Counted from the first letter of the stretch, positions 1,493 to 59,316 are shown. The stretch is 64,000 bases of DNA from an uncultured virus (IMG/VR IMGVR_UViG_3300031787_000058) (IMGVR_UViG_3300031787_000058); one strand, 5' to 3'. Program-made: numbers and translations. Notes: generated from the letters alone by a model not told the origin.

Positions 1493-1844
1493 AGGGCACC
1501 CGTACGGTCATGTTTAATAGCCTAACATGGGTAAGCACTACAGATACTAGTTCACTGTAGTCAACTTCTAGTTCTAACGAACCGTCGTTGACTTCTACCC
1601 ACTCCCCCTTAACAAGCGCTTTAGTTCCAACTGGCAAGTTGCTAACGAGGTTAGCAGAGATAGTAGGAATAAAGTGACGGCGGTACCCCATCCTATTGTT
1701 TTCAAAATCATACCAAACCGAATCGGGGTTTACATGCCCACTAATACGAACAACAGCTGGATATTCAGCCAGTTGTTCGTTGGCAATGTCTCCTTCAATG
1801 GCCATCGTACAGCGGCCAGTAGTATCGAATACTAAAACCGTCAT
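1476..1844 (-). CDS. Tail-associated hypothetical protein
   Basis: Coupled to the upstream fibre gene by ATGA overlap. Confidence 0.7.
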   Translation of the reverse strand: MTVLVFDTTGRCTMAIEGDIANEQLAEYPAVVRISGHVNPDSVWYDFENNRMGYRRHFIPTISANLVSNLPVGTKALVKGEWVEVNDGSLELEVDYSELVSVVLTHVRLLNMTVRVPCEAAS

Positions 1845-41024: not shown

Positions 41025-41447
41025 GTGATCCTGCCGCGACTGATCCGCTTCCGGGACGCGCCCGCGTACCTGGGGATGGATCGCAACCGCTTCAACGCCG
41101 AGGTCAGGCCGCTCGTCCGAGAAGTCCCCATGGGCGTGCAGGGCGTGGCCTTCGATCGCCTTGACCTTGACGCTTGGGCCGACGAATATGTGAACCGGAA
41201 TGGTCGTGCCCCGATCCAGTTTCGCCGCGGTCTCCGCGCAGAATCAGTCCGTTGCCGAATCCCTGCGTGCGCTTTTGGCGCAGGCAGAGCAGAAGTGGCT
41301 GGCGTGTATTGGCGGGGTTTACGCGGACGTAGACCCTCTGCTCACGACGGCTCTCGTCCTTTGATCCGCGCCTCGATGTCGTTGGCGTACGACGACACGC
41401 GCTTGCCGTTGCCGTCTCGGAAGTCACGCTTCCACGGCTCGCCTTGA
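41025..41447 (+). CDS. Excisionase-like DNA-binding protein with a probably non-native C-terminal extension
   Basis: PR.IR.RDAP.YLGM....F..EVRP...G..GV.FDRLDLDAW; tail overlaps the 3' end of the giant gene. Confidence 0.65.
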   Translation: MILPRLIRFRDAPAYLGMDRNRFNAEVRPLVREVPMGVQGVAFDRLDLDAWADEYVNRNGRAPIQFRRGLRAESVRCRIPACAFGAGRAEVAGVYWRGLRGRRPSAHDGSRPLIRASMSLAYDDTRLPLPSRKSRFHGSP

Positions 41448-44400
41448 CCGCGGTTCACGTTGCCCTCGCCCGAGAAGTAGCCGACCGCGATCTTTGCCGG
41501 GTCGTTGCCGAATTTGTCGGCGAGGTCTTTGATGTACCGCGCTCCCACCCGGATGTTGTCGGCCGGGTTGTCGATCCGCTCACCCGGCTTGGCATACGCC
41601 CGGAACGTGCTCGGGATCAGCTGCATACTGCCCTGCGCGCCGTCGGTGCTCGTCCGGGTGTCGCGCCCGCCGCTCGACTCCTGGTCGCGGATCGCCTTGA
41701 TGACCGGGAGTAGGTGCGCCGCGCCTTCCTCGGCCACCAATTGGGCCAGCGCCGTGCCCAGACCCGCCTCGGTCGGCGGCTTCCGGCCAGCGGGCACGCT
41801 GTCGAGGCCCGCGGAGGGGCGCACGGAGGGCCGCGCAGGGGCGTTCTGGGTCGTGGGGGCGGCCTTAGCAGGGGCCGCTTCCTCGAGGCCCTGACGAACG
41901 CGCTCGCGCATCTCCCGGGGCGCCTGCTTGATCATGCGGCCGTCGCGCTCGGCGGCCATGCCACGGGCCCGATCCCGGATCTGGTTCGGGGTAATGACGA
42001 TCGGGGTGTCCGTGTTCTTGGCGTTCCACGAGTCGAGTTTTGCAGACGCCTCGGCGATCGCCGCCTGGTCGCCGTCCAGCACGCCGCGGGCCCACTTGTC
42101 CACGATGCTCGACTCGACGCGCTTCTGTAGAGCGATGTCCTGGTAGACCGGGCCGACCTTGCGCTGCTGGCGGGCGACGGCAGTCGGCTGGAATCCGATC
42201 GCCTTCGAGGCGACATCCAACCCATCCACATCCGTGATCTTGCGGCCGCGGGTGTCGGTGGCGTATCCCTTGGCGCCCCACTCGGCGGCCGTGGCGATGT
42301 CCTTGGCGAACTTGGGCAGCGCGTTTTGCACCGCCTTGCCACCCTTGCCCTCGAACCCTGCATCGATGGCGTCCGCGATCTGGGTCGCGGCGCCCGCGCT
42401 CGGTCCAAGGATCTCCGCGAACTCGCGGGTGCGCATGTTTTCGTTCGACGGCTTGAGCAAACCGGTGCCCGGGATGAGGTTGCCGAGCCCAAGGCGCCCG
42501 TGCCAGTCCATCGGAAGCATCGAGGACAGCCCGTAGAGCATGAAGTCGCCGAGCTGCTCGCCGAAGATCTCGTAGGCCGCCCGGCGCTTGGCTCGAACCA
42601 TGTTGGTGTCGAAGCCGAGCATCTGGCCAAGCGTGTCGATGAGGTCGTTGAGATCCTGCGCGAACGGCAGGCCCTCTTCGCCAGCGAGCAACATCAAGAT
42701 TCCGAGCATGAAGAGAGCCGCGCGCTTACCTTCCGGCCCGCCCTTCTTCACCATGCGGGCGAACATCTCCATGTACATGATGGAGAACTGCTTGAAGGTC
42801 AGGATCACGCGACCAGCCGGGTTGCGCGCCCAGTTCGGGCGGTTGGCCTTGCTGTAGATACCCTGCGTCTCGTTGACCGCGCGCACCGCGAAGGCGTACG
42901 GGTTCTGGCCGCCGCTTTCGCGGGCGATCTCGTAGGCTGCGACGAAGGCAACCTTGCGGTTGAACTTCTCGGCCAGCGAGAACATGGACCCGAGCAGGGT
43001 CAGAAAGCCGTTCATCCTCACGCGAGCCTGCTCGCCCGCGCCGACAATGTTTCCGAGCCTGGTAGCGACACCCTGCGCACCGACGCTGTACAGGTGGAAG
43101 ATCTCCTGCGCGTCCACGATGCCTTCCTGGCTCGCGCGCTTGAGGGCCGCGCGAAGGTCGGGGTCCGGCTCACGCTTGCCGAGCGAAACGGACATAGCCT
43201 TCGAGAAAGCCTTGGCGGCATCGCTACCGGAGGCGAACTGCGACAGGTACGGAACCGTTGTGGTGACGGTCTGGGTCGTGTTGACCGCGGCCGCCGCGAC
43301 CGAGCCCGTGAGGAACCAGGTGAACATCAGCGACGAGATTTCGGCGCCACCGTCCGACGGGTTCATGACGAACTGCTTGAGCTTGATCGCCTCGTCGCGC
43401 ACGTCGCCCTTCTCCTTCTTGGAGATGCGGGAGATCGCGCGATCCAGTTCCTTCATGAAGTAACGCTGCGAGGCGTAGCGGGCGTTCGAGGTGATGAAGT
43501 TGGACAGCACGCGCGGCAGTTCCCGGCTGTATCCCGGGGTGCCCTTGCGCTCGAGGCGGCGCTTGAGGGCCGACCGCTCGCTCATCACGTTCTCGATGTA
43601 GTTCTTCATCGCCGCTTCCTCGCCGATCGTCTCGGCGAAAATGGCGATCGTCTCCGGCGAGATACCGGAGTACATCTCGTGCGACTTCTCAGAGACCGGC
43701 GCGGCCGTGATCTCGATGTCCGACTGGCCCGCATACTGCCGCTCGAGTTCGGCGCGCATGGCCTTGGCCTCGCTCTCCGACTCGTACCGGCCGAAGAACA
43801 GGGTGGAATCGCCGTCGTCGCCACGATCCGGCAGGCCCGTCACCGGGTCGATACGGGTCACGGTCACGGCGAACTTGCCGAAGCGCATCAGCGGCGCGTA
43901 GCCGGCCTCCTTCAGGCGCTTGGCAATGCCAAACACCTTCAGCACCTTCTCGCGGGTGTCCTCGAGGGACTTGATCTCGGCCTTGATCTCTTCCTGCGCC
44001 GCGTCGTTCTGCGCCAGCATCGCTTGGGAGAGCGTCTGGTTCAGCACGCGCAGGCGCCGGTCGATCGCGCCGAAGATGGTCGGCCGTGCCCGGCTCACAT
44101 CGTCAAGAATTTGACGCCTGGCTTCCCGCGGCATCATGTCCTGGGCTACCGCGTACGCCTCGGCGGCCGCGAGCTCGTCGATGCTGGCATCGATCGCCGC
44201 GCGGGCCTGCTGATACAGGGCCCAGGCCGCTTGGCTCGCGCCCTCGCGCGCCATGAACTCGGCCTCTGTCCAAACCGTGCCGTCCATGACGGTATCGCCC
44301 GCCAGGGTGCCGGCGAAGATCGCATCGGCGGCCGCCTTGATGTCGCGCTGCGACTGGCCCGGGCCGAATGCCGTGGCGAATGCGGAGCGCACGTCCTCGG

Positions 44401-47400
44401 CCTTGGGCAGGATGCCAGGCGCCAACTCGGCCGGGCGGATCGAGGTCAGCGACACCGCGTTCAGGATGGCGTTCGTCAGTGCGAACACCTTACCGAAGTC
44501 ACCGTCCTTGAGTGCCTTGTGGTACTGGGTTGCCAGCGACTTGTCGTAGGCGTTGAAGTTCTTGATCGTGCCACGGCGGTTGGCCCAGAACTGAACGATG
44601 TTGTTGCGGACGCGCCGCATGTTCTCGACCGACGTGGGCCGCTCACCGGCCGCGGTTGGTGCGCCCAGGTTGGCGCCCGCGATCTCTTCGCTGATGGCGA
44701 CGCTATCCGGGCCGTTCTGAAGCAGCTGCATACCGGGCACGAACTTGCCGTCGCCCTTGATGACCGCCTTCAGGCCCTTGATGACCGGGGCATCGGAGCG
44801 CAGGCCGAAAGCGCCCTTGGCGCGCTCGATGAACTCCTTGAGCCACTGAATCGCCCGCTTGACCCACGACTGATCGGCCATGAACCGATCGTCCATGATG
44901 CGGGCGCCGTTGACCGCCCAGAACTCCGACGGGCTGTAGAACGCATAGTCGGTGCCGAACTCGAGCACACGATTCTGGAACGCCTTGACGACGCGCTGCT
45001 TGGCCTCGGCATCGCCCATGCTGGCCTTCAGCATGTCGGCCATGGCCTGCTTGCGCTCCGGGCTGGCCGCGCGGAAGGCGGCAAGCCACTGCTTCTCCCA
45101 CTCCTTGCGAATGCCCATCTGAACATCGAGCGGCATCATGCGTTCGGTGTGGTGCAGAATCTCGTGAACGGCGCTGTCGCCCTCGGTCTCGCCCTTGAAC
45201 AGGGTGAAGACCTTTTCCGCGGGGTTGTAGTTGGCCGCGGCAGTCCCGTTCGCGGCGGTTGTGCGGACGCTGATTCCAAGCTGCTCGGCAACGGCCGGGT
45301 TCTGGTCGATCAGCCACTCGGCGAAATCGGCTTCCTTGGCCGGGATCACCCCGTCCGCGACCGCTTTGCGCATCCGGGACTTGATCCAGTCCCCGCCGCG
45401 GCGCCGTGCCGACATCACATCCCGGTAGGCGCGCTCGTCGCGCTGATCGCGCATACTGGCGATCACTTCCTTGACGGCCAACTGGAACTCGGCGTCCGTG
45501 ATCTTGCCTTCGTCGAGACGGGCTTGCGCCTTCTCGAGGCGGCGCAGACCGTCGGCGCGGACCTTGGGTGCAACGTCGGCGAACGCCCCAGCAGGCGAGC
45601 GCGAGACGTTCTCGAGCAGGCTGCGCGACATGTTCTCTACCGGGCCCGTGGCCTTCGGTGCGAGCAGCTTGCGCGCCTGGTCGAGGTAGTTCTGGACCGT
45701 GAGCGTCACGTCATCCTTGGCCAGCACGACATCGAGAACCTTGCGCAGCCTGTCGTTGCTGTCGCCGAACTGGACAGACATCTGGGCGCCGCTCTTGAAG
45801 AAGTCGCCCGTGACCTTGGTGATGTTCTGGTCGAGGAAGTAGTAGCCGCCCGTCTTCTTTGAACTCGGTACCACGATCGAGTAGTAACCGTTGCCCTTGT
45901 TGATGATGCGGAAGTTGCCGTCCGTCGAGGTAATGGCAGCGTTGCGGCCGATCTCGGTGAGGAACCGGATCGCGTTATCGGTCGTGTTAATCCGAACCGG
46001 GGCTTCCTTCTGCTCCTTCTCGAAGTCGAACTGGCGGTTCATCAGCACGCCTTGGCTGGTCGTGCCGTCCTTCTTCGTGTACTGGATGATCTGCCCGCGC
46101 CAGTTGGCGTAGCCGGCCAGGATGTTGCCGGTCACGATCCACCGCTTCTCGCGGCGCGCGGTCGAGCCCTTGTCGAACACGTCGTAGACCGTGCCGTACT
46201 CAGCCTTGCCGGTGTCGGTGTTGAAGTAGTTGATGCGGTTGACGTTCTGCAGCTCGTACGCGCTCCCGATCTGGGAGAAACTCAGCGTCAGCGACTTCGC
46301 ATCGCCGTTGGCGAGCGCAACTTGCATCTTCCAGTTCGACCCCGCGGCCGGGTTCTGGGTGCGGCCCGTGCTCAGGATGTCCGTGATCACGCCATACAGA
46401 AGCACGCCGTCCTTGTTCTTCACCTGGATCGAGTTGCCGATCTGGTAGGTGTCGAGCACGGTCATCGCGTGGTTCAGGATCGCGCCCAGGTTGTCCTTCT
46501 GCTGCTGCCGACGAACCGGGTCGGCCTCGGCGTCCTCGAGGCGCTTGTCGTTGGCGTCGATGAACGCCTGCCCGTCCTTGCGCAGATTGGTGATCTGCGC
46601 GCGGGAGATTTGCGCCGGGAGATTTGCGCCGTCCATGCCGCTGTCCTCGAGGCGCTTCATCACAAGCGCGCGAACTTCCTCGCTCGTGAACGGCTTTACA
46701 GTCCGCTTGACATCGACCTGTTCCATGTTGGCCTCGCGGGCGAACACGGAATTCTCTTCCTTGGCGTCGGTGATCGGCGTGACGGAGAGCGTCTCGGCGT
46801 CGAGATCGACGGCCTTGGCCTCGAGCTTGTTCGTGCCGAGGCTGTTCTCGCGCTCGATCAGGTCGTTGTAGCGGGCGATCAGTTCCTCGTAGATCGCTTC
46901 CTGCTGCTTGATCGGCAGGATCGGGACATAGCCCGTGAACTTGCGGATGTCGTCCTCGTTCGCATCCTCGGCCGGGTCATCGACCAGCGTGACGATCTTG
47001 TTGCCGCCGATCGACAGGTGAATCTCCGGGTTGTCGCGCAGGAATTCCTGCACGACCTGGCCGCCGTAGTCGTTCATGAAGTCCACGACGCCTTCGGCTG
47101 TGACGGCCGACTTGCGGGAGGCCGTGGTGTTGGCGTTGAGGGACGCCATCTTCTTCAGCAGGACCGCGGCCGGACGCTGCTCGGCCGGGATGTCGGCCAT
47201 CATCTGCGAGTACGCTGGCGCGACCACCTGGCCGGTGCGATGCACGCGGCCAAGCATCTGCATGTGCGTGTCGATGTTCTTCTCGGGCTGCACAATGATC
47301 ATGTGCCGCTTGCGCTGATCTTTGACCTTGCTCGAGGCGTGCAGCGACAGGCCCGTGGAGCCCGCCTGGTTCAGGATGAGAACATCGACCGCGCCGTTGT

Positions 47401-50400
47401 TGAACGACCGCACCGCGTTGACGCGCTGCTTGATGTCGCTCGAGCGGCTGGACAGTTTCGGCGTGCCCGACGAGTAGTTCAGGGCGATCGTGCGGCCGGT
47501 GATCTCGTCGGTCTTGTAGCCCGCCTTGCGAAGCTCGGCGTGCATGAAGTCGATCGGCGAGATCGGCGCCGAGCCGAAGCCAGAACCGCGGATCTGCTCC
47601 AGGATGGAGTTATAGCGCGCGGTCAGCGTCGGGCCGAGGTCTTTGTCGGTCAGTCGGTACTTGGTCTTCTGGCCGTTCGGCGCCTTGATCGTTACCATCC
47701 GCTGCTTCTCGAGGTAGCGGATGTAGAGATCGGCGAACGACAGCGACACCGGGTCGCCGACGTTCAGTTCCATCTCTTCGGCGTAGTCCTTCAGGAACGA
47801 GCCCATGGTGTTCGAGACGGTCATCACGACCTTCTCGCCCGCTTTCAGGCGCTCGATGGCGTGGCGCAGAGAGTCCTGCACCTTGAGCGACAAGAGCATC
47901 TGGTCGATCAGGTTGTGCATGATCGAGCCGAAGTTGGCGCCTTGCACGGTGGTCTTTTCACCCGTGACGCCCATCATCTTGCCTTCTTTGTCGAGCTCCT
48001 TCTGCATCGCCTTGACGGCGGCTTCCTTGGAGCGCGAGAAGCCCAGGATCGAGCGCATGGAGTTCGCCATGTTCTCGGCTGTCTCTTTGTCCACGGCCGT
48101 CTCTTGGGTGTCGTAGGACACGCCGGCGAACGTGCGCTCACGGCGGATGTACTGTCCGTCCTGCGTGAGCATCGTCGCCACGATCTGCTGCATCGGCACA
48201 CCGCCGCGCTTGATGGCTTCGGCGAGTTCGCTGATCTTGTTGACCGCCAGTTTCATGTTCGTGCTGGCGTAGAGGTCCATCACGTCCGGGCGCTTGGCGT
48301 AGGTCGCCGACGAGAAGAACGTGCCAAAGGCGTTCGTGACAAGGCTGCGGACAAATGCCGCGCGCCCGGTGGCCAGTGACCCGCCTTCCTTCTGCGCTTC
48401 CCGCTGGCCCTTGGTGCGGGCCTGCGTCTCGCCGGAGCCGCCTGCGTTGTGGCTCTCGTCGAAGATCATGAAGTTGTCGCGGCCGAAGTGCTGCACGAAC
48501 CGCTGCCGCTCGGTCGGCTGCCCCTTGACGGTCTGCAGCTGGCTGTAGGTCGTGAAGATGACCCGGTAATCGCCGAGCGTGTTTGCGGCGATCATGTCCT
48601 TCATCATCTTGGACAACTGCTCGCCACGCTTCGCCGGCTTCAGGTTCAGGTTCGTCTCGGTGATGTCCTCGCCCTTCATGCGGACGATGCTGTACGGAAC
48701 CGTGGCATCGCTGTTGGTCATGAAGATGCGCGGCTTCTCACCGGTCAGGCCGAGTTCCTCGTCCATGCCGATGTCGTCCAGGTCTCGGATCATGTCCGAG
48801 TACAGGTTCGGCTTTTCGGTCACGAAGATCGGGATGCGGCCCTTGCGCAGCGCGTAGCGGATCATGCCGGCAACGACGCGGCCCTTACCGATGCCCGTCT
48901 GGTCGCCGATGATGAAGCCCTTGCCCTGCTCGGCGTTGTAGATGCCGAGTGCCAGAGCGTCGATCTGTTCTGCGGAGAAGTTGGCGCGGGCCGTCTCGAG
49001 ATCCATCTCGAGGGCCTTGGCCACGTACTCGTCGAGGCTGCCGACGTTATCTTCGATGCGCTGCAGTGACTCTTGGATCGAGTCGCGCATCGCGGCCGGC
49101 ACGAGCGTGCCGACGGAAGCCGCTTCAGATCGCGGCGTGTAGGCGACCTGGGAGCCGGTCTCCTGTTCCTGCCCGCGGCGGTCGGTTAATCCAGACTCGA
49201 GGCGCTGACCATCGAGGCCGCCAGATCGACCCACGTCGCCAGATCGGTCTCCTTGATCGCCTGCGCGGCTTCCTCGCTTGGCGTTACCTTCGCCGGAAAC
49301 GGACTGTTGTCCATCGCCAGTGTTAGGTGCGTTCTCAGATTGAGATTGCCCATCACGAGATACTGACCCGCCTCGGCCGGATCGTCCGTTTCCGGTACGC
49401 CCAGAGCCCGACATGCCTCGACCGTCGCCTCCGGGGGTTCCTTGCTGGCCATCTCCGTCACCCGGTCGGCGAGTCTCTCCACCCACTCCCGCTCCGTCAC
49501 GCTGCCCGTCGGCACCTTCGCCGCCAGCAGTTCGATTGGAGCCGAGATTTCCTTCGGCGCCCACGCTACCAATGCCATTCAGCTTCTCCTTCAGTTGCTC
49601 GAACGAGTCGATGATCACCGGAAGATCGGAGGCCGGCAGCGCGCGAGGGGACTCGGTGCCACGGCCACGGATCACGATGACATCGACCGGATAGCTGGCG
49701 CCCTGCTTTGAGTAGAGGCTGCCGGCCACCGTGAAGTGGTCAACGACATTGTATTCGTTGTACAGCTTGAAATAGAACGCCCGCTTGGCAGCGCCGCGGT
49801 AATCCTGGCGCCGGGGCTCGTCCTCTTTGGCCATCGACCCGCCCACGATCAGGACGGCGGTGCCGTCGTCCTTCATGGCTTTCAGGGCATTGAAGGCGAT
49901 CGCGTGATCGATCTCGTTGGTGGTGTAGTCGGGCGTAACCGTGAAACTAATCGTGTTGCCGTCGGCGTCCTTGACCGCGCCGAACGGCGGGTTGGCGATG
50001 ACGGCATCGACGCGGGCGCCGAACTGGGTCGTCGCAGCGTTTTCGGTCGTGACGTTGAAGCCCATCTGCCGCAGCGCAGCAGCGCGGTTGGCGTTGAGCT
50101 CGTTCGCCTGCACCGACGCCGGGTTGGCGCCGATCAGCAGCATCCCATTACCGGCCGTGGGCTCGAGGACGCGGGTCTGGGCCGTGATACCGGCGAGTTC
50201 CGAGGCGAGGAACGCCAGCGGGACCGGGGTCGAGTACGCCTGCTCGCGCACGCTCGTTGACGAACGCACGCCGAGGTTCGGCTGACGGTTGTAGAGTGCA
50301 ACCAACCGGTCGTAGATGTCGGCCGACGACAGTTTCAGGCGTCGTCCAGCGGCGACAATCTCGCGCCCGGCCATGACGACAGCCGCTTCCACGGTCTCGT

Positions 50401-53400
50401 CGGCGAGTTTGGCGGCTTCCGTGCCGGCCTTGATCGGGGTGCCCGTGATCTCGGCGATCTTGGCGCGGGCGTCGTTGATCGTGGCAAAGGACTGGCCACC
50501 GGCCAGCATCACGAACAGTTGCCGCGCAATCTCGTGGCGGCCTTCCGGGTTTTCCAGCGTCGGCGCCGCCTCTTGCGGCTCGGTGTCGAACTCGATCTTG
50601 CCCGCCTGGACGTCGCTGATGAACCGCACGATGTACGGCTTCATGTTCTCGACGGCCACCTGGCCGAACTTGTCGAGGACCATGCGAATGATTGCTCGCA
50701 TGGCTTCCCGGATGTCCTGGCCCGCCTGCACGAAGTTCTTGGCCGCCGCGATGAAGAGCGGCTTCGCCTTGGCGTAGGTCTCCTCGTCGAATGTGAAGCC
50801 GGAGTTCAGCTTGCCGTTGCCGCCGAAGAGTTTACCGAGTCCGTCGATTGCATTACCGAGCCCTTCGGCCGTGTTCTTGCCGGCGCTCTGGATCGAGGTG
50901 AGCGGGCCGCGGTCGGACTGGCCCTGACGCTCGCGCATCTCGCGCTCGGTCTTCGGCTTGTCCTTGGCCAGTTCCTCGCGCATCAGGTCGTCGAACATGT
51001 TGCCGAGGTCGATGTCCGGCTCTGCGGCCGGAGGCTCTTCCTGCGCAGGCGGCTTGGCGTAGATCGTCCCCTCGCCAGGCTGCCAAGAGGCAGAGGCGAC
51101 GGTCATGCCGAATTCCTTGAGCTCTTCGACGGCCAGCGGGAACGGATACCCGACGAGTTTGCCGCTCGCGGATACCGCCGACGGCTGCCCTGGCTGCCCC
51201 TTCGACTTGGACTCGCTCAGTTGGTACCAGTACAGGCCGTCGTTCTTCTTCTCGCCATCGAGGCGCTTCTGGAATGCCTCGCGCACAGCCTGGTCAACTT
51301 CGGTGGCGCGACCCTCGGTCGGCGACACGTAGTCGTCCTTGACCTTCGGGCCCTCGTCCGACCACTCGATGTTCTTGACGAGATCGCGGAACAGGTCGTT
51401 GAACCCGGCGCGCTCTACGCCAGAGGCGTACGGCGTCCCCTTGTATCCGGTGTCCATGCTGGTCGCGCCCTCGCCAACCCAACCGGTGACGAGGTACGGG
51501 CTCTTGCGCGTGCCGAGTTCGTCGAACACAAACGCCTCGAAGGCGCGCGCCCACATCTCGACGGGCGTTCCCCAGTAGTCCTTGCCGAGCCTGTCGGCTT
51601 CGTTCTTGAAGTTCGTGGCGCGGCGGATGTTCCACCCTTCGAGCTTCCAATACTTGTTCTCGACGTAGGCGCGGGCGGTCTCGATCGGGCCGAGGCGCTT
51701 GTTGTTGCGTAGGTGCGATTGACCGGCGAGCAGGCGGTCAAGCGTCTTGACCGCGTAATCGATGTCGTACTTCTCGAGCAGCGCCTTCTTCAGTGAGTTG
51801 ACCGCCTTCTTGCTCGAGGCGCTGGCGGTCGATCCGGCCTTAAAGCCCTGCATCTCACCGGTCAGGAAGTGATCGAGCGCATGACCCCACTCGTGGGCCA
51901 CGGTGCCGTCGCCCTTGGTCTTCGTGAGGTTAATGACGTTGGTGTTGGGCTCGTAGTGCGCCGCCGCACGGCCGCCACGGCCACGGGAACCGAACGCGAG
52001 GCCCATTCGGCCGCCGAACGAGATCGCCTTGGCCGGCATGTTGAGCGCGTCGGCCAGATCCCAAAGCGCGTCGTAGGCGTGGTTGATGTTCGCCTGGCGC
52101 TCGGCCGCGTTCACCCACTCGCCGAACTCGACGCCACGGAAGCCGAACGCCTGCATGAAGTCGTCGCCGTTCACGTCCTTGCCGTTGCGGCGATCGGGCA
52201 GGTTCTCGCGGACGATGTTCTCGAGCGGCGGGCGACGATCGACGCCCTTGGAAATCGACGAGTCTTCCTTCGTGCGGCGGGCATAGTCGTTGAGGTCCGA
52301 GACGATGAGCCGGGCGTACTTGGTGGCGATCTCACCGAACTCGGTCAGGTTGGTCTTGGGCTTGGAGAAGCCTCTGTCGTCGCGCTCGTACTCGATCGTG
52401 CCGATGAGCTTGTCCAGCGCCGCCTTCGCTTCCGCAATGCTCATGGCGTTGCGGGTCGCTTCGCGCATCTGCTCCATCGTGGCGATGTAGTCGGCCGCTT
52501 CCTCGATCAGGAAGTCGATGCCCTCGTCTTTGGCCTTGCGCTTGGTCGCCTCTGAGAAACTTTCCTCGTAGCGGCCGCGCCCACCGCCTGCGTTGGAGCC
52601 GACGTACTCGAGAAGCGACGGAAATCGGTTGCGCACTTCGGTCAGGAAGACGACCGTACCAGTGCTGGCGCCTTCCGGCTGGACAATGTTCCAGACGCGG
52701 GTCTTCGAGGCGCTGTCCAGAACCTTCTGGATGTCTTTGTCGAGATCCCCGGTCTTGCCCTCGCCGAGTCGCTTCTTGGCCAGGTCTTTGCGGCTGCCCC
52801 ACAGCTTCTCGCCGACGTTCTGAAGTTTGTCCTTCTTCTCGTCCTTGGGCGGCAGCGCCTCCCTCTCGCCCGTCAGATACTCACGGGCCATGAGGAACAG
52901 CGTGTTGATCTCATCGAGCGCCTTCGGGACGGCGTTGAAGTTCGCCAGCGCGCGATCGACAACTTCCTTGGCGTTGACGACCGACTGCGCGCTGCCCGCG
53001 GCGTAGAGCTCGGGGTTGAGCTCGACCAGTTTGCGGAACGCTTCCTGGTACATGCCCTCGAGCGCCTTGTTGAACGAGGCGAGGCGCGCGTCGAGGCTCT
53101 TGCCCGACGTGCCCGGGGTGTTGTCCAGGAATTCTTGGAATGCGAAGCGAGCGTTGGTGGTCAGTTCCTTCTTCAGGACATCCGCACCACCGGCCGGGAT
53201 CTTCCAGCCCTTCTGCTTGAAGTTACCGAGCAGGCGCTCGACCCGCTCGTGCAGTTTGGTGACAGCCGCGGCCTTTGCGCCCCACGCCTCGAGGGCCGTG
53301 GGCTCGGCGGCCGGCTGGCTTACTTGCTCTTGGCTGCCTGCTTCGCCTTCATCCGCCTGACTGCCTCGAGCATCGCCGCTTTCACCTTGGGGTTGCTCTC

Positions 53401-56400
53401 GATCCGGCGTACCAGTCTCTCCAGCCCCGTCTGCGGGCGGCTGGTTGCCGGCGCCGAGGAGGTCGCCTTGGGTTTCGCCTTGTCGGTTGGCAGCATCGTT
53501 CTTCCCTCTCAGGTTTCGCAGGGTGTCGAGCTTCGTCGGGAGTTCCATGGCCCCGAACAGGCCGTCTCCCGCGTTCTCGACAGATTGAACTATGGCGGCG
53601 TATTCCTGCAAGTATTCCGTGATCGCTCGCGCGCTACGGATGTTGTCGTTCATGAACTGCAGGATTTCTTTGGCTTCGGCGCTGATGGTGTCGCCGAACA
53701 TGCCAATTTGCGACAGGAAGTCCTCGATGCTGCGCCCCTCGGCGCGCAGTTGAGACAGGGTTTCGACAGCCTCGGTGATGTCCTGGCTGATGTCGTACCC
53801 ATCAACGGTGCGGGCCTGCGCCAGTTGCGCGGCCGCGCGCACAAGCGACGTGCCGACGTTCTTCAGGTCGGCGTTGGGCGACTCGATCAACCGGGCCAGC
53901 GTCTCGCTCTTGCCGTACGCTTTGTACAGGATGGCATTGCGGATGCGGCGCTTGCCGGATTGGGCGATCGTGCCGTCTGCGGCCACGAACCCGGCGAGTT
54001 CGTTCGTCGTGTAGCCCTTCAGCGCGCCCTTGATCGCCTGAATGTTGTTGGCCGTCATCGGGATGTCGCCCGAGTCGTCCACCTGGATTTGGTCGAGCGC
54101 GGTCATGCGCTCGGCATCGACCGCCGCCTGCTCCATGTCGGACATCTGCAGGCCGGCCGCTTGGTTCGACTGGATCGCCAGGCGCCGGGTGTCGGCGTCC
54201 TGCGTCACGCGGCGCACCAGTACCGGCTTCTTCATGCCGCGGATCGCGCCCGGATCGAGACCGAAGCGCGCGGCGTTCGCCTCGAGCTGCTTGCGGTACT
54301 CGCCGGCCATGTTGTTCTCGTAGGCGAGGCTCACGCCCTCGAAGCGGCCGTTGCCGCCCACGATCACACCGTCCGATGTGAGCGTCGGCGAACCGTAGTC
54401 CATCGTCTTCGACGTGTCGGACAGGCGCTCGAAGTCCGGGTTACGCGAGATCTCGGCCACCTGAATGTTCGAGGCGGCGCGCGTGCGATCGCGCGGCTGG
54501 TTGACGCCTTCCTTCATCGAGGCTTTCACCTCGTCGGCATCGACCACCGCCCATTCGGCGTCGAGCTTCTCGTTGCCCGCAATGACGGTCGTCTTGCGGC
54601 GCTGGTCGAGCATCTCGCGCTCGTTGCGCGGCGGCTCGGCGGGCGTCTCGTCGGGCGCCTGTCCCGTTGCCGCCCCGGCCTGCTCACCGCCGAACAGCGC
54701 GCCGAGCCCGTCGATCGGGTCTTGTGCCTGCCCTACTTCTGCCGCTGGCGATCCCGGTTCTTGTCCTTGCGGCGCTGCTTGCTCGGCTTCAGGGGCTTGT
54801 GTGCCATCGACGGGTTCCTCTGCAGTTGGGGGATTCTGTTGCGCGCCGAACAACTGGCGCAGCTTGGTCAGGTCGCCGTTGGCATCCTGCAGCGCGGCGA
54901 CTTCTTGCCGTTCGCGTTCGGTCAGCGGGGTCGGCGGGAACTCCTGCTCGATCTCGCCCTGATCGGTGAAGATGGTGCGGAAGCCGCCCTCGGCCTTCGA
55001 GACCAACTGCTCGAGGCGCGTCTCCGCGTAATCGAGTAGCGCCTGGTCGTCCTCCGAGACGGGCTCTGCGGCCGCGGGAGGCGGCGTATCAGCGGGCGGC
55101 GGCGTTGGCGCTGCCTCGGCCTGCGGAGGCTCTGCGGGCGGCTCTACGCCCGGGATGGGGCCGATCGTGGGCTCTATGCGCTCCTGATTCGGTGCGTTCG
55201 GCGGCGCGACGGGCGCCTGCGGTCCCCCGCCCAACACCAGGTTGACGCCACCGCCCATGATGCCGCCCAAGGTGCCGGCAAATGCCGTCCGTTTGGCAGC
55301 GTTGGGGGCAGACGGGAGCTCGCGCCGGCCGACGGCCTCGCCCGCGATGTTGCCGGCCTCTTCGCCCGCTTCCTGCGCGCCTTCCCTGAAGACGGCAGAC
55401 AGGAAACTCTTGACGCGCTCGAGCCCGATCCGGCCTGCGGACAGGTCGCCAGCCAAACGGCGCGCGATCTCGCCTTCGGCGCCGCCGCCCGTGGCGATAC
55501 TGGCCAGCACCGATACCGCCGCCGACGTGGCGGCTGCTTGGTACCGGTTGGCAAGCGGTTGGTCCTCGAGGGACGTGAACGTGTCGGCCGCATTCTGGGC
55601 CGCGATCGTCGCCACGCTCGTCGCCACCGCGGCCTTGGTCGTGGCCGCTTGGCCGAGCCCGCGCGCGCTGGCCACCATGGCCGCGCCCTTCGCGGCGCCT
55701 GCCGGGAGGAACATCGAACCGATAGTGGTAATCGACTGATCGACGAGAACCGACGGGTTGTCGAGCAGGTACGAGAACATGTCGCCGACACCCTTGGTGT
55801 CGTCCTGCAGAACTTTGGCGAAGCCGCGCTGCTGTTCGTTGAACTGCTTGGTTCCAACCAGTTCGTCGATCGACTCCATGCCGCGCTTCATAGCGTCGGA
55901 GGTGTCTTTGCCGACATTACCGCCCGTGGCCATCTGCGCGATGTCGGCGACGCCCTTGACCGCGGTCGGGCCGATCTTGAGCGCGCTGGCCGTGAGGTTG
56001 CGGGCAGTCCCGGTAATCGGGTTCTGCTCTTCGACTGGCGTACCAACTTCCGGCAGCTTGAGACCGGATCGCTGGTTCATCTCGCGCGCGATGGATGCCA
56101 TGGCGCGCTTCTCGAGCGGCGCGGACATACCAGGGTCCGTGCTCATCTCGATCTTGATGTCGTTCGGCGCAGCACGGTACTGCGCCTCGAGCACCTTGCG
56201 CATTGCGGACGGGATCTGTTCGTTGGGCAGATAGCCCGTGCCGGGCTCGATCAGATTGGCGATCCCGCCAACCACGGAGTCGAGCGCGCGTTGGAACATG
56301 CCCGGCTCTTCTGACTTCTGGGCGGGCGCAGCGGCCGGCTTCGGAGGCGCCAAGAATCGATCGCGGAGGCTAGCGGCGTCCGAGCCCGCGTTCGGCGCGA

Positions 56401-56704
56401 CCCAGTAATCGAAGTAGCGCGCCTTGGCGCCTGCTTTTTCTTCGGGCGAGAGCGCCTGGTACTCCGGCTTGGCTTCAATGTCGGCCCACTTCGGGGCCTT
56501 GCCGAGATCCGGTGTGGTCGGTGCAGTGCTCGCGCGCGGGGGCGCCTTCGGCGGCTCGGCCTTGGGAGGCGTCGGGGCGCTGTTGAATGCGCCGTAGAGA
56601 TCTTCGTTGAGGGTATCGAGCCCAGTGCTCGGCGGTTTGGGGTCGCCTCGAGAACCTGTGCTTGGTGAATCAAAAAGCCCGAGTAGGTTCTCGTTGATGT
56701 CCAT
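41342..56704 (-). CDS. 5120-aa large polyvalent / DarB-like internal virion (ejection) protein
   Basis: N to C: ddrB-ParB-like (QPRDR, GNGR), LPD5/LPD1-like (GEKL.G.RKD, FRGVEFG, AHEW.HALD, EM.ARAFE), N6-MTase (EPTAGNG, NPPF), Strawberry-notch SF2 helicase (GDQTG.GKGR, DESH, SATY), HEILH zincin, PLxRFG (PLMRFG), lytic transglycosylase (QES.G, G.MQ). Confidence 0.92.
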   Translation of the reverse strand: MDINENLLGLFDSPSTGSRGDPKPPSTGLDTLNEDLYGAFNSAPTPPKAEPPKAPPRASTAPTTPDLGKAPKWADIEAKPEYQALSPEEKAGAKARYFDYWVAPNAGSDAASLRDRFLAPPKPAAAPAQKSEEPGMFQRALDSVVGGIANLIEPGTGYLPNEQIPSAMRKVLEAQYRAAPNDIKIEMSTDPGMSAPLEKRAMASIAREMNQRSGLKLPEVGTPVEEQNPITGTARNLTASALKIGPTAVKGVADIAQMATGGNVGKDTSDAMKRGMESIDELVGTKQFNEQQRGFAKVLQDDTKGVGDMFSYLLDNPSVLVDQSITTIGSMFLPAGAAKGAAMVASARGLGQAATTKAAVATSVATIAAQNAADTFTSLEDQPLANRYQAAATSAAVSVLASIATGGGAEGEIARRLAGDLSAGRIGLERVKSFLSAVFREGAQEAGEEAGNIAGEAVGRRELPSAPNAAKRTAFAGTLGGIMGGGVNLVLGGGPQAPVAPPNAPNQERIEPTIGPIPGVEPPAEPPQAEAAPTPPPADTPPPAAAEPVSEDDQALLDYAETRLEQLVSKAEGGFRTIFTDQGEIEQEFPPTPLTERERQEVAALQDANGDLTKLRQLFGAQQNPPTAEEPVDGTQAPEAEQAAPQGQEPGSPAAEVGQAQDPIDGLGALFGGEQAGAATGQAPDETPAEPPRNEREMLDQRRKTTVIAGNEKLDAEWAVVDADEVKASMKEGVNQPRDRTRAASNIQVAEISRNPDFERLSDTSKTMDYGSPTLTSDGVIVGGNGRFEGVSLAYENNMAGEYRKQLEANAARFGLDPGAIRGMKKPVLVRRVTQDADTRRLAIQSNQAAGLQMSDMEQAAVDAERMTALDQIQVDDSGDIPMTANNIQAIKGALKGYTTNELAGFVAADGTIAQSGKRRIRNAILYKAYGKSETLARLIESPNADLKNVGTSLVRAAAQLAQARTVDGYDISQDITEAVETLSQLRAEGRSIEDFLSQIGMFGDTISAEAKEILQFMNDNIRSARAITEYLQEYAAIVQSVENAGDGLFGAMELPTKLDTLRNLRGKNDAANRQGETQGDLLGAGNQPPADGAGETGTPDREQPQGESGDARGSQADEGEAGSQEQVSQPAAEPTALEAWGAKAAAVTKLHERVERLLGNFKQKGWKIPAGGADVLKKELTTNARFAFQEFLDNTPGTSGKSLDARLASFNKALEGMYQEAFRKLVELNPELYAAGSAQSVVNAKEVVDRALANFNAVPKALDEINTLFLMAREYLTGEREALPPKDEKKDKLQNVGEKLWGSRKDLAKKRLGEGKTGDLDKDIQKVLDSASKTRVWNIVQPEGASTGTVVFLTEVRNRFPSLLEYVGSNAGGGRGRYEESFSEATKRKAKDEGIDFLIEEAADYIATMEQMREATRNAMSIAEAKAALDKLIGTIEYERDDRGFSKPKTNLTEFGEIATKYARLIVSDLNDYARRTKEDSSISKGVDRRPPLENIVRENLPDRRNGKDVNGDDFMQAFGFRGVEFGEWVNAAERQANINHAYDALWDLADALNMPAKAISFGGRMGLAFGSRGRGGRAAAHYEPNTNVINLTKTKGDGTVAHEWGHALDHFLTGEMQGFKAGSTASASSKKAVNSLKKALLEKYDIDYAVKTLDRLLAGQSHLRNNKRLGPIETARAYVENKYWKLEGWNIRRATNFKNEADRLGKDYWGTPVEMWARAFEAFVFDELGTRKSPYLVTGWVGEGATSMDTGYKGTPYASGVERAGFNDLFRDLVKNIEWSDEGPKVKDDYVSPTEGRATEVDQAVREAFQKRLDGEKKNDGLYWYQLSESKSKGQPGQPSAVSASGKLVGYPFPLAVEELKEFGMTVASASWQPGEGTIYAKPPAQEEPPAAEPDIDLGNMFDDLMREELAKDKPKTEREMRERQGQSDRGPLTSIQSAGKNTAEGLGNAIDGLGKLFGGNGKLNSGFTFDEETYAKAKPLFIAAAKNFVQAGQDIREAMRAIIRMVLDKFGQVAVENMKPYIVRFISDVQAGKIEFDTEPQEAAPTLENPEGRHEIARQLFVMLAGGQSFATINDARAKIAEITGTPIKAGTEAAKLADETVEAAVVMAGREIVAAGRRLKLSSADIYDRLVALYNRQPNLGVRSSTSVREQAYSTPVPLAFLASELAGITAQTRVLEPTAGNGMLLIGANPASVQANELNANRAAALRQMGFNVTTENAATTQFGARVDAVIANPPFGAVKDADGNTISFTVTPDYTTNEIDHAIAFNALKAMKDDGTAVLIVGGSMAKEDEPRRQDYRGAAKRAFYFKLYNEYNVVDHFTVAGSLYSKQGASYPVDVIVIRGRGTESPRALPASDLPVIIDSFEQLKEKLNGIGSVGAEGNLGSNRTAGGEGADGQRDGAGVGGETRRPGDGDGQQGTPGGDGRGMSGSGRTGNGRSGRGGSVSRDGQSQSENAPNTGDGQQSVSGEGNAKRGSRAGDQGDRSGDVGRSGGLDGQRLESGLTDRRGQEQETGSQVAYTPRSEAASVGTLVPAAMRDSIQESLQRIEDNVGSLDEYVAKALEMDLETARANFSAEQIDALALGIYNAEQGKGFIIGDQTGIGKGRVVAGMIRYALRKGRIPIFVTEKPNLYSDMIRDLDDIGMDEELGLTGEKPRIFMTNSDATVPYSIVRMKGEDITETNLNLKPAKRGEQLSKMMKDMIAANTLGDYRVIFTTYSQLQTVKGQPTERQRFVQHFGRDNFMIFDESHNAGGSGETQARTKGQREAQKEGGSLATGRAAFVRSLVTNAFGTFFSSATYAKRPDVMDLYASTNMKLAVNKISELAEAIKRGGVPMQQIVATMLTQDGQYIRRERTFAGVSYDTQETAVDKETAENMANSMRSILGFSRSKEAAVKAMQKELDKEGKMMGVTGEKTTVQGANFGSIMHNLIDQMLLSLKVQDSLRHAIERLKAGEKVVMTVSNTMGSFLKDYAEEMELNVGDPVSLSFADLYIRYLEKQRMVTIKAPNGQKTKYRLTDKDLGPTLTARYNSILEQIRGSGFGSAPISPIDFMHAELRKAGYKTDEITGRTIALNYSSGTPKLSSRSSDIKQRVNAVRSFNNGAVDVLILNQAGSTGLSLHASSKVKDQRKRHMIIVQPEKNIDTHMQMLGRVHRTGQVVAPAYSQMMADIPAEQRPAAVLLKKMASLNANTTASRKSAVTAEGVVDFMNDYGGQVVQEFLRDNPEIHLSIGGNKIVTLVDDPAEDANEDDIRKFTGYVPILPIKQQEAIYEELIARYNDLIERENSLGTNKLEAKAVDLDAETLSVTPITDAKEENSVFAREANMEQVDVKRTVKPFTSEEVRALVMKRLEDSGMDGANLPAQISRAQITNLRKDGQAFIDANDKRLEDAEADPVRRQQQKDNLGAILNHAMTVLDTYQIGNSIQVKNKDGVLLYGVITDILSTGRTQNPAAGSNWKMQVALANGDAKSLTLSFSQIGSAYELQNVNRINYFNTDTGKAEYGTVYDVFDKGSTARREKRWIVTGNILAGYANWRGQIIQYTKKDGTTSQGVLMNRQFDFEKEQKEAPVRINTTDNAIRFLTEIGRNAAITSTDGNFRIINKGNGYYSIVVPSSKKTGGYYFLDQNITKVTGDFFKSGAQMSVQFGDSNDRLRKVLDVVLAKDDVTLTVQNYLDQARKLLAPKATGPVENMSRSLLENVSRSPAGAFADVAPKVRADGLRRLEKAQARLDEGKITDAEFQLAVKEVIASMRDQRDERAYRDVMSARRRGGDWIKSRMRKAVADGVIPAKEADFAEWLIDQNPAVAEQLGISVRTTAANGTAAANYNPAEKVFTLFKGETEGDSAVHEILHHTERMMPLDVQMGIRKEWEKQWLAAFRAASPERKQAMADMLKASMGDAEAKQRVVKAFQNRVLEFGTDYAFYSPSEFWAVNGARIMDDRFMADQSWVKRAIQWLKEFIERAKGAFGLRSDAPVIKGLKAVIKGDGKFVPGMQLLQNGPDSVAISEEIAGANLGAPTAAGERPTSVENMRRVRNNIVQFWANRRGTIKNFNAYDKSLATQYHKALKDGDFGKVFALTNAILNAVSLTSIRPAELAPGILPKAEDVRSAFATAFGPGQSQRDIKAAADAIFAGTLAGDTVMDGTVWTEAEFMAREGASQAAWALYQQARAAIDASIDELAAAEAYAVAQDMMPREARRQILDDVSRARPTIFGAIDRRLRVLNQTLSQAMLAQNDAAQEEIKAEIKSLEDTREKVLKVFGIAKRLKEAGYAPLMRFGKFAVTVTRIDPVTGLPDRGDDGDSTLFFGRYESESEAKAMRAELERQYAGQSDIEITAAPVSEKSHEMYSGISPETIAIFAETIGEEAAMKNYIENVMSERSALKRRLERKGTPGYSRELPRVLSNFITSNARYASQRYFMKELDRAISRISKKEKGDVRDEAIKLKQFVMNPSDGGAEISSLMFTWFLTGSVAAAAVNTTQTVTTTVPYLSQFASGSDAAKAFSKAMSVSLGKREPDPDLRAALKRASQEGIVDAQEIFHLYSVGAQGVATRLGNIVGAGEQARVRMNGFLTLLGSMFSLAEKFNRKVAFVAAYEIARESGGQNPYAFAVRAVNETQGIYSKANRPNWARNPAGRVILTFKQFSIMYMEMFARMVKKGGPEGKRAALFMLGILMLLAGEEGLPFAQDLNDLIDTLGQMLGFDTNMVRAKRRAAYEIFGEQLGDFMLYGLSSMLPMDWHGRLGLGNLIPGTGLLKPSNENMRTREFAEILGPSAGAATQIADAIDAGFEGKGGKAVQNALPKFAKDIATAAEWGAKGYATDTRGRKITDVDGLDVASKAIGFQPTAVARQQRKVGPVYQDIALQKRVESSIVDKWARGVLDGDQAAIAEASAKLDSWNAKNTDTPIVITPNQIRDRARGMAAERDGRMIKQAPREMRERVRQGLEEAAPAKAAPTTQNAPARPSVRPSAGLDSVPAGRKPPTEAGLGTALAQLVAEEGAAHLLPVIKAIRDQESSGGRDTRTSTDGAQGSMQLIPSTFRAYAKPGERIDNPADNIRVGARYIKDLADKFGNDPAKIAVGYFSGEGNVNRGQGEPWKRDFRDGNGKRVSSYANDIEARIKGREPS
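49186..49578 (-). CDS. Nested +1-frame gene inside the giant gene (130 aa)
   Basis: AAGGAG 7 nt before ATG; 39 of the first 46 codons end in G/C; host frame here is G/R/S junk using CGA, GGA, ACT, TTA. Confidence 0.7.
   Translation of the reverse strand: MALVAWAPKEISAPIELLAAKVPTGSVTEREWVERLADRVTEMASKEPPEATVEACRALGVPETDDPAEAGQYLVMGNLNLRTHLTLAMDNSPFPAKVTPSEEAAQAIKETDLATWVDLAASMVSASSLD
53320..53496 (-). CDS. Nested +1-frame gene inside the giant gene (58 aa)
   Basis: GAGAGGGAAG before ATG; 50 of 58 codons end in G/C; MLPTDKAKPK...GLERLVRRIESNPKVKAAMLEAVRRMKAKQAAKSK. Confidence 0.55.
   Translation of the reverse strand: MLPTDKAKPKATSSAPATSRPQTGLERLVRRIESNPKVKAAMLEAVRRMKAKQAAKSK
54733..54807 (-). 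CDS. Nested +1-frame basic peptide inside the giant gene (24 aa)
   Basis: GAGGA 8 nt before ATG; MAHKPLKPSKQRRKDKNRDRQRQK; 22 of 24 codons end in G/C. Confidence 0.4.
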   Translation of the reverse strand: MAHKPLKPSKQRRKDKNRDRQRQK

Positions 56705-58992: not shown

Positions 58993-59316
58993 TCAATTCG
59001 ACGGCTTCGGGTTGGCGTCCTTGACCGCCTTGATGTCCGAGTAGAAAGGCTCGGCCTTGGGCAGCGTGCCCTGATCCATGGCGTGCCAAAGCGCGTCCAG
59101 TTGGTCGCCGATCCGGGGGTAGGCCATGCGCCGCCTGGTCGTGTAAGGCAGGGCAACCGGCACGAGCTCGTCGTTCTCGTTGAACCGCATGTTGACAACA
59201 TCGACACGCTCTTGCGTCGTACGGATCAGCCTCGTGCCGTCTGGGCATTGCGGCGGAAGCGGATGCGTCAGCAGTTCTGGAACGCCATTCGGCAAACGAT
59301 AGAGGTAGTACGTCAT
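58993..59316 (-). CDS. Tail-fibre-associated protein
   Basis: ATGA coupling; YP.I.DQLDALW..K..NPK motif. Confidence 0.7.
   Translation of the reverse strand: MTYYLYRLPNGVPELLTHPLPPQCPDGTRLIRTTQERVDVVNMRFNENDELVPVALPYTTRRRMAYPRIGDQLDALWHAMDQGTLPKAEPFYSDIKAVKDANPKPSN

Follow-up and report, generated by a model that had tools for sequence, protein, structure and literature searches.

Three low-complexity linkers in a giant polyvalent protein gene of an uncultured virus (IMG/VR IMGVR_UViG_3300031787_000058) are, on comparative sequence evidence, very probably dual-coding DNA, each carrying in the +1 frame a complete small gene with its own ribosome-binding site (RBS), start and stop. The 64,000-nucleotide (nt) stretch of DNA that was analysed, referred to throughout as the window, encodes this giant gene (the host gene, read in the host frame) on its minus strand at 41342..56704, and the product of 5120 amino acids (aa) is assigned to polyvalent virion or ejection proteins from the open reading frame (ORF) call, Pfam, homologues and neighbouring genes. 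As the initial annotation of this DNA had proposed, three complete same-strand ORFs lie nested within it, all opening with ATG, all in the +1 frame (offsets 1897, 3208 and 7126 from the host start, each 1 mod 3) and each preceded by a purine-rich motif resembling a Shine-Dalgarno (SD) sequence. ORF1 (54733..54807, minus strand, as are all features below unless stated) encodes 24 aa, MAHKPLKPSKQRRKDK..., is very basic (isoelectric point, pI, 11.9) and follows the SD-like GAGGA at 54816..54820, where relatives have AAGGAG, GGAGG or AAGGAA. ORF2 (53320..53496) encodes 58 aa, again basic (pI 11.5) and with a conserved C-terminal part, behind GAGAGGG at 53504..53510, a place at which the metagenome relative L084 has GAGAGGT. 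ORF3, hereafter gene X (49186..49578; 130 aa), is acidic (pI 4.4) and lies in the spacer between a methylase and a helicase; its AAGGAG (49586..49591), evident from the sequence and from relatives, stands 7 nt before the ATG, and a +1-frame TGA (49579-49581) adjoins that ATG. Both frames are open over the shared DNA at all three ORFs in the window and likewise in all 64 full-length X relatives, which rules out frameshifted relic domains and sequencing errors as sources of the arrangement.

The codon phase of the giant gene is inverted over precisely these spans. Across the whole gene the host GC content at codon positions 1/2/3 is 0.64/0.45/0.85, and within the nested spans it becomes 0.92/0.62/0.39 (ORF1), 0.85/0.57/0.53 (ORF2) and 0.76/0.66/0.49 (ORF3); read in the +1 frame, the same spans give 0.62/0.39/0.92, 0.57/0.53/0.85 and 0.66/0.49/0.76, respectively, which is the usual genome pattern. 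A 40-codon sliding scan of the 15.4-kb gene returned five segments in which position 3 is not the most GC-rich, and the three strong ones are exactly the nested-ORF linkers, such that the shift in host codon usage described in the initial annotation is genuine and limited to these linkers. The two weak anomalies, a Pro/Ala-rich spacer at aa 501-560 (55025-55204) and an Ala/Pro-rich stretch at aa 4911-4950 (41855-41974), have host GC at position 1 (GC1) slightly above that at position 3 (GC3), with GC3 still 0.76-0.82. Among 12 tabulated +1-frame ATG ORFs of the giant gene, host GC3 falls below GC1 in only three, namely ORF1, ORF2 and ORF3, and two longer +1 ORFs of 143 and 139 codons show normal host phase and R/S/P/T-rich, junk-like translations.

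The mere existence of the ORFs was weighed against chance by keeping the host protein and permuting its synonymous codons gene-wide in 2000 shuffles, and the outcome speaks against nested genes: the +1 frame stayed free of stops in 100% of shuffles over the ORF1 span, 98.5% over ORF2 and 42% over ORF3, and ATG-ORFs of equal or greater length appeared in 40%, 72% and 28.5%, respectively. The expectation that such ORFs would be rarer in codon-shuffled linkers than in real ones was therefore not borne out, with 28-72% of shuffles giving a comparable ATG-ORF, and in the window alone the existence of the ORFs is compatible with chance. Hydrophilic spacers are in fact automatically open in the +1 frame because T at host codon position 2, and with it a hydrophobic residue, is required for a +1 stop. 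On a purely compositional explanation, the nested ORFs would be by-products of linkers without T at codon position 2, their ATGs and purine runs being supplied by Asp/Asn-Gly and Lys/Glu codons, and the two longer, evidently junk, +1 ORFs lend this some force; the collapse of host GC3 at only these spans is left unexplained by it. As the shuffles do not place the ORFs beyond chance, the case for nested genes rests on the phase anomaly and on the relatives.

Gene X offers the richest comparison. In the window it shares its DNA with the host-frame spacer (49184..49579, aa 2376-2507), a stretch rich in G, R, D, S and Q that leads from the C-terminal part of an NPPF-type adenine methylase (49580..50257, directly upstream of X, recognized by NPPFG in the translation and as an alignment-conserved block) to a Strawberry-notch-like superfamily 2 (SF2) helicase core downstream (46829..48931, aa about 2592-3292; Pfam AAA_34 and Helicase_C_4). 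Scans with single junction-region proteins recovered only the window's own record, and relatives were gathered through a junction alignment of 15 giant homologues, yielding 80 viral-contig loci that encode the methylase-helicase junction, namely the record of the window itself and relatives with 42-63% identity to the window. A nested +1 ORF occupies this spacer in all 80, in agreement with the prediction that orthologous linkers keep the +1 gene. A hidden Markov model (HMM) of X matches 70 of them, in each case in +1 relative to the giant ORF; nine others (L068, L069, L071-L074, L078, L081, L082), which include phages of GC 0.36-0.46, encode in the same spacer a +1 ORF of 92-100 aa with SD and ATG, a short form whose homology to the helical core of X emerges from a profile-profile comparison (hhalign, probability 86%, E=4.7e-6, 65 columns); and one (L026) starts within X, of which the final 21 residues are visible. 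The start codon is ATG in 64/64 full-length copies, and AAGGAG lies no more than 20 nt upstream in 62 of these, the exceptions being L046, which has AAAGGA, and L057, for which the start rule picked a far-upstream ATG. In 54/64 copies a +1-frame stop adjoins the ATG. The SD of X doubles as host Lys-Glu codons, and AAG-GAG is retained even in AT-rich phages; indeed, ORF, ATG and SD persist across phages spanning GC 0.36-0.68, a retention for which composition gives no account.

The arrangement extends to a cultured phage. Bacteroides phage BS-TP4 (L091, PQ571277.1) has an unannotated 119-codon +1 ORF at 2180-2539, in the methylase-helicase spacer of a 5391-codon coding sequence annotated as 'hypothetical protein'. 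This ORF was located by position, shows weak collinear similarity to X (E=0.0017 against the single sequence) and is without an SD, which fits since Bacteroides does not rely on SD sites. Acinetobacter phage MD-2021a (L092; 29% identical, GC 0.34) has an acidic methylase-helicase spacer with many +1 stops and no nested ORF, so the arrangement is no necessity of such spacers, and this phage serves as a natural negative control.

Fifty-one distinct DNAs entered the selection analysis of X. Their pairwise divergence averaged 0.367/0.293/0.451 at positions 1/2/3 of the X codons, and the host third position is therefore the least variable of the host codon; amino-acid identity over the overlap was 0.508 in the X frame versus 0.377 in the host frame. 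The median Nei-Gojobori (NG86) ratio of nonsynonymous to synonymous substitution (dN/dS) in the overlap was 0.47 in the X frame, 0.91 in the third frame and 1.47 in the host frame, these being apparent values from pairwise comparisons that are not phylogeny-aware; the flanking methylase and helicase gave 0.13-0.18 in the host frame and 1.2-2.2 in the two off-frames. The frame-specific check thus places the +1 frame below 1 for X, as anticipated for a real gene. The signal is weakened by damped synonymous divergence in the X frame (proportion of synonymous differences, pS, 0.51 versus 0.76 in the flanks), the two frames constraining each other, and the overlap accordingly appears to evolve like a gene coded in the X frame, but in damped form.

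Openness of the host frame was examined by keeping the X peptide and redrawing its synonymous codons from each locus's own usage, with 400 trials per locus. The host frame was open in 0/400 redraws at 37 of the 51 loci, with a median probability below 0.0025 and a value of 0.12 for the window's own copy; in the converse test, with the host protein kept and its codons redrawn, the +1 frame was open with a median probability of 0.14 (59 loci). The loci are related, so the redraw probabilities of either test cannot be multiplied. Selection thus keeps the host frame open across X, and the nested frame, as read from these comparisons, carries most of the amino-acid constraint, so that both frames are under selection.

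The protein family of X reaches beyond the giant genes. A HMMER search with the 130-aa query against 1.84 billion representative proteins returned 81 homologues at E<=1e-3, 56 of them at E<=1e-10, and many are proteins of 130-135 aa that match end to end and begin at the same Met. Elsewhere X forms a C-terminal domain behind transmembrane helices and ankyrin repeats (P0129), behind a conserved 165-aa N-domain (P0137, P0149, P0154) or after transmembrane segments (P0135, P0142), and it sits at the N-terminus of AT-rich proteins of 330-350 aa (P0143, P0156 and others). A bacterial homologue on a 287-kb contig, P0144 (WP_128000194.1; source name Piscinibacter defluvii), unites in one chain transmembrane helices, a GIY-YIG/T5orf172 nuclease, a stretch resembling a zinc ribbon and X at the C-terminus, an architecture that hints at X as a reusable binding module outside phage giant genes. 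Since X is fused to unrelated domains in such proteins, these homologues are not off-frame artefacts of the methylase gene. No match to X at E<=1e-3 was obtained by tblastn in 50,697 phage records and 72,556 plasmids, and scans with P0143 for non-nested X homologues found none in viral or genome contigs.

An alignment of 34 members shows P8, R39, N78 and W116 to be invariant and the C-terminus to be conserved as VSxSSLD; acidity is a trait of the family (median pI 4.43; of 131 residues, 20 are acidic and 10 basic). From this alignment AlphaFold2 predicts a mixed fold of short strands and seven helices with a mean predicted local distance difference test (pLDDT) score of 95.3 and a predicted template modelling (pTM) score of 0.88. 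A point on the other side is that X has no family match in Pfam, PHROGs or NCBIfam. Structural relatives were likewise not evident: a sequence-profile search of the PDB gave no match (best E=0.46), Foldseek with the model reached at best E=1.0 in the PDB and 0.79 in BFVD, VIA-align over 48,161 chains peaked at Z=3.2, and the ESM Atlas search gave no usable match. The predicted fold may therefore be new, an absent structural match being no proof of novelty. A compositional by-product accounts neither for the purifying selection in the +1 frame, nor for a fold predicted at pLDDT 95, nor for X domains in non-nested proteins; chance is already contradicted for ORF3 and ORF1 and, for the set as a whole, is so improbable that it barely merits retention. 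We conclude that X is almost certainly a real nested gene, as far as sequence comparison can establish one.

X is, in addition, inherited together with its host gene and with the methylase and helicase on either side. In pairwise identity, X follows the methylase (Spearman 0.71) and the helicase (0.47) at least as well as the two flanks follow each other (0.39), and the Mantel r of 0.56 for X versus flanks was reached by 0/999 permutations. This bears on the rival view of the nested genes as ShiLan-type selfish mobile insertions, which the host frame happens to read through and which persist by spreading. Such insertions have a published precedent in phage methylase genes (PMC11855218), elements like ORF1 vary in position among giant genes and hardly differ in sequence among phages with GC from 0.39 to 0.67, and in the bacterium noted above an X homologue is joined to a GIY-YIG nuclease. 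Against spread by mobility, X or its short form is present in 80/80 loci rather than sporadically and co-diverges with its flanks; Pfam places none of the three ORFs in a nuclease family, and PHROGs and NCBIfam do so for neither X nor ORF2; and the SD sites here are strong, whereas no RBS is reported for the ShiLan gene by its authors. We regard mobility as improbable and resident nested genes as the better description.

ORF1 is the smallest of the three and the most widely dispersed. L084, the one metagenome relative of this N-terminal region, has the +1 peptide MALKPLKPSKQRRKDKNRERERKK in place of MAHKPLKPSKQRRKDKNRDRQRQK in the window, and the 25 host codons concerned differ 4/3/1 times at positions 1/2/3, as compared with 0.14/0.09/0.32 differences per codon in the neighbouring ParB block. 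The element is also present in other giant genes at varied positions, at junctions of different domain pairs, and a search of viral contigs with a degenerate pattern for KPLKPSKQ[KR]RK, for which simple arithmetic predicts few chance matches, hit at least 120 stretches. The initial annotation had regarded the nested genes as possible domain-plus-partner cassettes; for ORF1 this fails, as it precedes the ParB domain rather than following an enzyme and its relatives occupy such varied positions. Seventy-one distinct copies were taken from 80 of the matching loci, and 68 of them lie in +1 within an ORF that stays open over at least 500 aa, with a peptide of 20-51 aa (median 24) from the nearest start and, in most copies, AAGGAG, GGAGG or AAGGAA 6-9 nt upstream of that start.

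Two features of this sample argue against ORF1 as a gene: the set was gathered by a +1-frame pattern, so that conservation of the core is by construction and only the flanks and the start column are free evidence, and 45 of the 69 starts analysed are not ATG. The start column, three codons upstream of the pattern, is nonetheless highly structured across these 69 copies (GTG 31, ATG 24, TTG 12, CTG 0, other 2), being NTG without CTG in 67, whereas the Leu column next to the pattern reads CTN in 56, TTR in 9 and a non-Leu codon in 4. Because the first column is never CTG though the Leu column is mostly CTN, it behaves as a start codon and not as a residue. Entropy downstream of the pattern is 1.28/0.77/0.79 at host positions 1/2/3 and far upstream is flat at about 1.5-1.6, and at sites where the +1 peptide does not change, the residues of the host frame do (E/Q/K, T/A/P).

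The main rival for ORF1 holds that the element acts at the level of nucleotides or of the host peptide, as a recombination site for domain cassettes, an RNA element or a processing motif. Its location at junctions of different domain pairs, its very short length and its many non-ATG starts would all suit such a role. Variation at +1 third positions that alters host residues and leaves the +1 peptide untouched would not, nor would a start column of NTG that is never CTG next to a Leu column that uses CTN, or an SD-like motif at 6-9 nt; moreover, Rfam recognizes no family in 48800-55200, the single sub-threshold microRNA match (E=0.31) being taken as chance. A nucleotide- or host-peptide-level function is thus unlikely, and we hold with good confidence, from the sequence patterns, that ORF1 is a translated small gene.

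The start signals also bear on whether the +1 frames might be entered by programmed ribosomal frameshifting, giving truncated isoforms of the giant protein with alternative C-termini. Isoforms made by frameshifting are common in phage structural genes, and SD-like sequences are able to stimulate a +1 frameshift, as in prfB. At 54/64 loci, however, the +1 stop adjoining the X ATG would terminate a ribosome already in the +1 frame before it reached X, an arrangement that favours internal initiation over frameshift entry. The SD-to-start spacing of 6-9 nt is typical of initiation, the behaviour of the ORF1 start codon points the same way, and X homologues begin at the same Met in proteins of 130-135 aa. 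Frameshifting is accordingly highly improbable as the route to these products, and independent initiation of nested genes is preferred.

For ORF2 the comparison is narrower. L084 is its single relative at the DNA level, a degenerate DNA pattern having returned only the window's own record and this one relative, and both the ATG and the upstream GAGAGG motif are kept there; a third protein, P0003, is compatible with ORF2 by back-reasoning only. Over the C-terminal 31 codons the two sequences differ at 19 nucleotides, distributed 4/3/12 by +1 codon position, with identities at 25/31 +1 residues versus 16/30 host residues (P=0.0001 under random placement of the differences). Three points pull the other way: the comparison comprises two DNA sequences; the N-terminal 23 codons carry 24 differences spread 7/9/8, with identities of 9/23 (+1) and 8/22 (host) and no +1 signal (P=0.64); and no protein homologues of near or longer length were found in the protein collection. 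AlphaFold2 run on the two sequences predicts helices at residues 24-34 and 36-56 (pLDDT about 89-95), which is weak evidence as helices are easily predicted. On balance the sequence comparison suggests that ORF2 is probably a real nested gene.

The setting of these genes is a large polyvalent protein. The ddrB-like ParB domain (54206..54574, aa 711-833; PF18763, E=3.6e-27) lies between ORF1 and ORF2 and is joined in the same chain by an LPD1 domain (aa 1705-1779), the AAA_34/Helicase_C_4 helicase and a C-terminal SLT lytic transglycosylase, all recognized by Pfam and in a virion gene context. No Pfam match to a methylase domain was found in the window's giant protein at E<=0.01; the methylase assignment comes from the NPPFG visible in the translation, from PF02384 in some homologues and from one phage match annotated 'N-6 DNA Methylase'. 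With an N6-adenine methylase N-terminal to an SF2/Strawberry-notch helicase in one polypeptide, the pair corresponds to the DarB-type dyad. Homologues of the giant protein number more than 1000, with lengths of 2816-8960 aa, and the methylase-helicase spacer measures 143-160 aa among the 45 homologues listed. The giant gene is preceded by genes matching PHROGs for internal virion, tail and DNA-ejection proteins, and the window also encodes portal, terminase, primase and lysis genes; the window is phage DNA, and the giant protein is encoded where injected internal proteins are.

Several further observations concern this locus. Relatives with direct terminal repeats (records G002-G051) are phages of 59.6-67.7 kb, about a quarter of whose genome (12-15 kb) is occupied by the giant gene. 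Window positions 1844-6921 and 59316-63709 each hold a tail-protein gene (phrog_2589) followed by an internal-virion-protein gene (phrog_511), with GC of about 0.50 in the left copies and about 0.62 in the right; the window may take in a related pair of modules or phages, or may wrap round a genome. Opposite the giant gene, antisense ORFs run on the plus strand at 42326-45862 (1178 codons), 46052-48379 (775) and 53135-55039 (634), as is typical of GC-rich coding DNA. A short LGxLFGG-type motif recurs by domain junctions of the giant protein, at aa ~660-672 and ~1955-1990 (window about 54690-54725 and 50735-50840), and a longer block, LFGG..G.L.SG..FDEETYAKAKP, is shared with L071, L072 and L082, where it belongs to an additional domain inserted behind the nested gene; the motif may be a recurring junction or docking motif.

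The comparative data thus uphold the central claim of the initial annotation that hidden +1 genes are real, the support being very strong for ORF3, strong for ORF1 and reasonable for ORF2. The small proteins would be made by internal initiation on the giant mRNA, and the giant gene would read through the same bases in the other frame to produce a hydrophilic, low-complexity tether. We infer that this layout came about through the fusion of neighbouring genes over a small gene already resident between them, leaving the nested frame as the older one and the spacer as its overprint. That the linker is the overprinted frame had been suggested initially, and the suggestion fits well: the nested frame has the genome-like codon phase and a product that is predicted to fold and also occurs in non-nested proteins outside giant genes, and the host frame is of low complexity. 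The host frame corresponds to the -1 frame of the nested gene, in which a stop would need T at a nested third position followed by AA, AG or GA. Reading a gene in its -1 frame would consequently be cheap, because synonymous third-position choices of the nested gene suffice to avoid host-frame stops; the opposite offset would force stops wherever Met is followed by a codon beginning with A. The Gly/Arg/Asp/Ser/Gln composition of the host spacer would, in turn, be a by-product of the codons of X.

As for function, our tentative first choice for X is a partner that would bind to, or dock on, the DarB-like methylase-helicase machine, an idea favoured by the use of X as the C-terminal module of varied proteins and by its tie to the methylase-helicase dyad in every relative. 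A predicted complex of X with giant-protein residues 2150-2800, covering the methylase end, the spacer and the helicase start, scored 0.00, a value that speaks neither for nor against such contact. A DNA-mimic type of acidic inhibitor and a chaperone are the alternatives considered, and the inhibitor, immunity or chaperone roles towards the adjacent enzyme that the initial annotation raised would be conjecture. A broader and rather doubtful generalization is that the 'disordered linkers' of giant polyvalent proteins are read-through shadows of resident small genes left behind by growth through fusion, with X as a previously unseen fold that would dock separately encoded effectors to the injected DarB-like methylase-helicase.

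The finding matters in several respects. Spacers of giant polyvalent proteins, usually dismissed as disordered linkers, here conceal conserved genes, and gene callers that forbid nested same-strand genes overlook phage proteins encoded beside anti-restriction machinery. That the residues of a host linker can follow from the codons of another gene affects the interpretation of disorder and low complexity in phage proteins, and the fusion scenario suggests a cheap route by which multi-domain genes could grow without losing the genes between their parts. The presence of the same arrangement in the cultured Bacteroides phage BS-TP4 renders the idea testable at the bench.

Nested phage genes are a known kind, to which the genes described here add two new protein families. 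The lambda Rz/Rz1 genes form the classical +1 nested pair, whose products act together, and phiX174 provides B-in-A and E-in-D, nested same-strand genes in a shifted frame with their own start signals. The genes reported here share with these pairs the common strand, the shifted frame and the independent start signals. They differ in that the lambda and phiX174 examples are small genes in small gene sets, whereas here the host is a 15-kb multi-enzyme gene whose own reading of the shared DNA appears to yield only a tether, and three different genes occupy three spacers.

The host protein itself conforms to the polyvalent proteins and the DarB-type methylase-SF2 helicase dyad described by Iyer et al. 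2017 (PMC5512222), with the dyad, ddrB-ParB, LPD1 and lytic transglycosylase in one chain and a virion-gene context. By term search, 'overlapping' is absent from that paper and 'nested' is used only for a hairpin fold; nested spacer genes are not described there, and no earlier account of genes nested in, or overlapping with, those of polyvalent proteins emerged from our literature search. The initial statement that no such arrangement was known is nevertheless too strong, for a 2025 report (Arsenault, Gosselin, Gogarten 2025, PMC11855218) describes the ShiLan domain insertion in actinophage DNA methylase genes, which hides an HNH endonuclease gene lying out of frame and is the closest published analogue. 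As with ShiLan, a complete out-of-frame gene that annotation misses lies inside a phage gene containing a DNA methylase, and the host frame passes without stops across it and is read as a loop or spacer. The ShiLan element, as presented there, is a homing element of disjoint distribution with no RBS detectable by its authors. Unlike it, the nested genes reported here have strong SD sites and no nuclease family match, and X or its short form is fixed in 80/80 methylase-helicase loci, with X co-diverging with its host gene.

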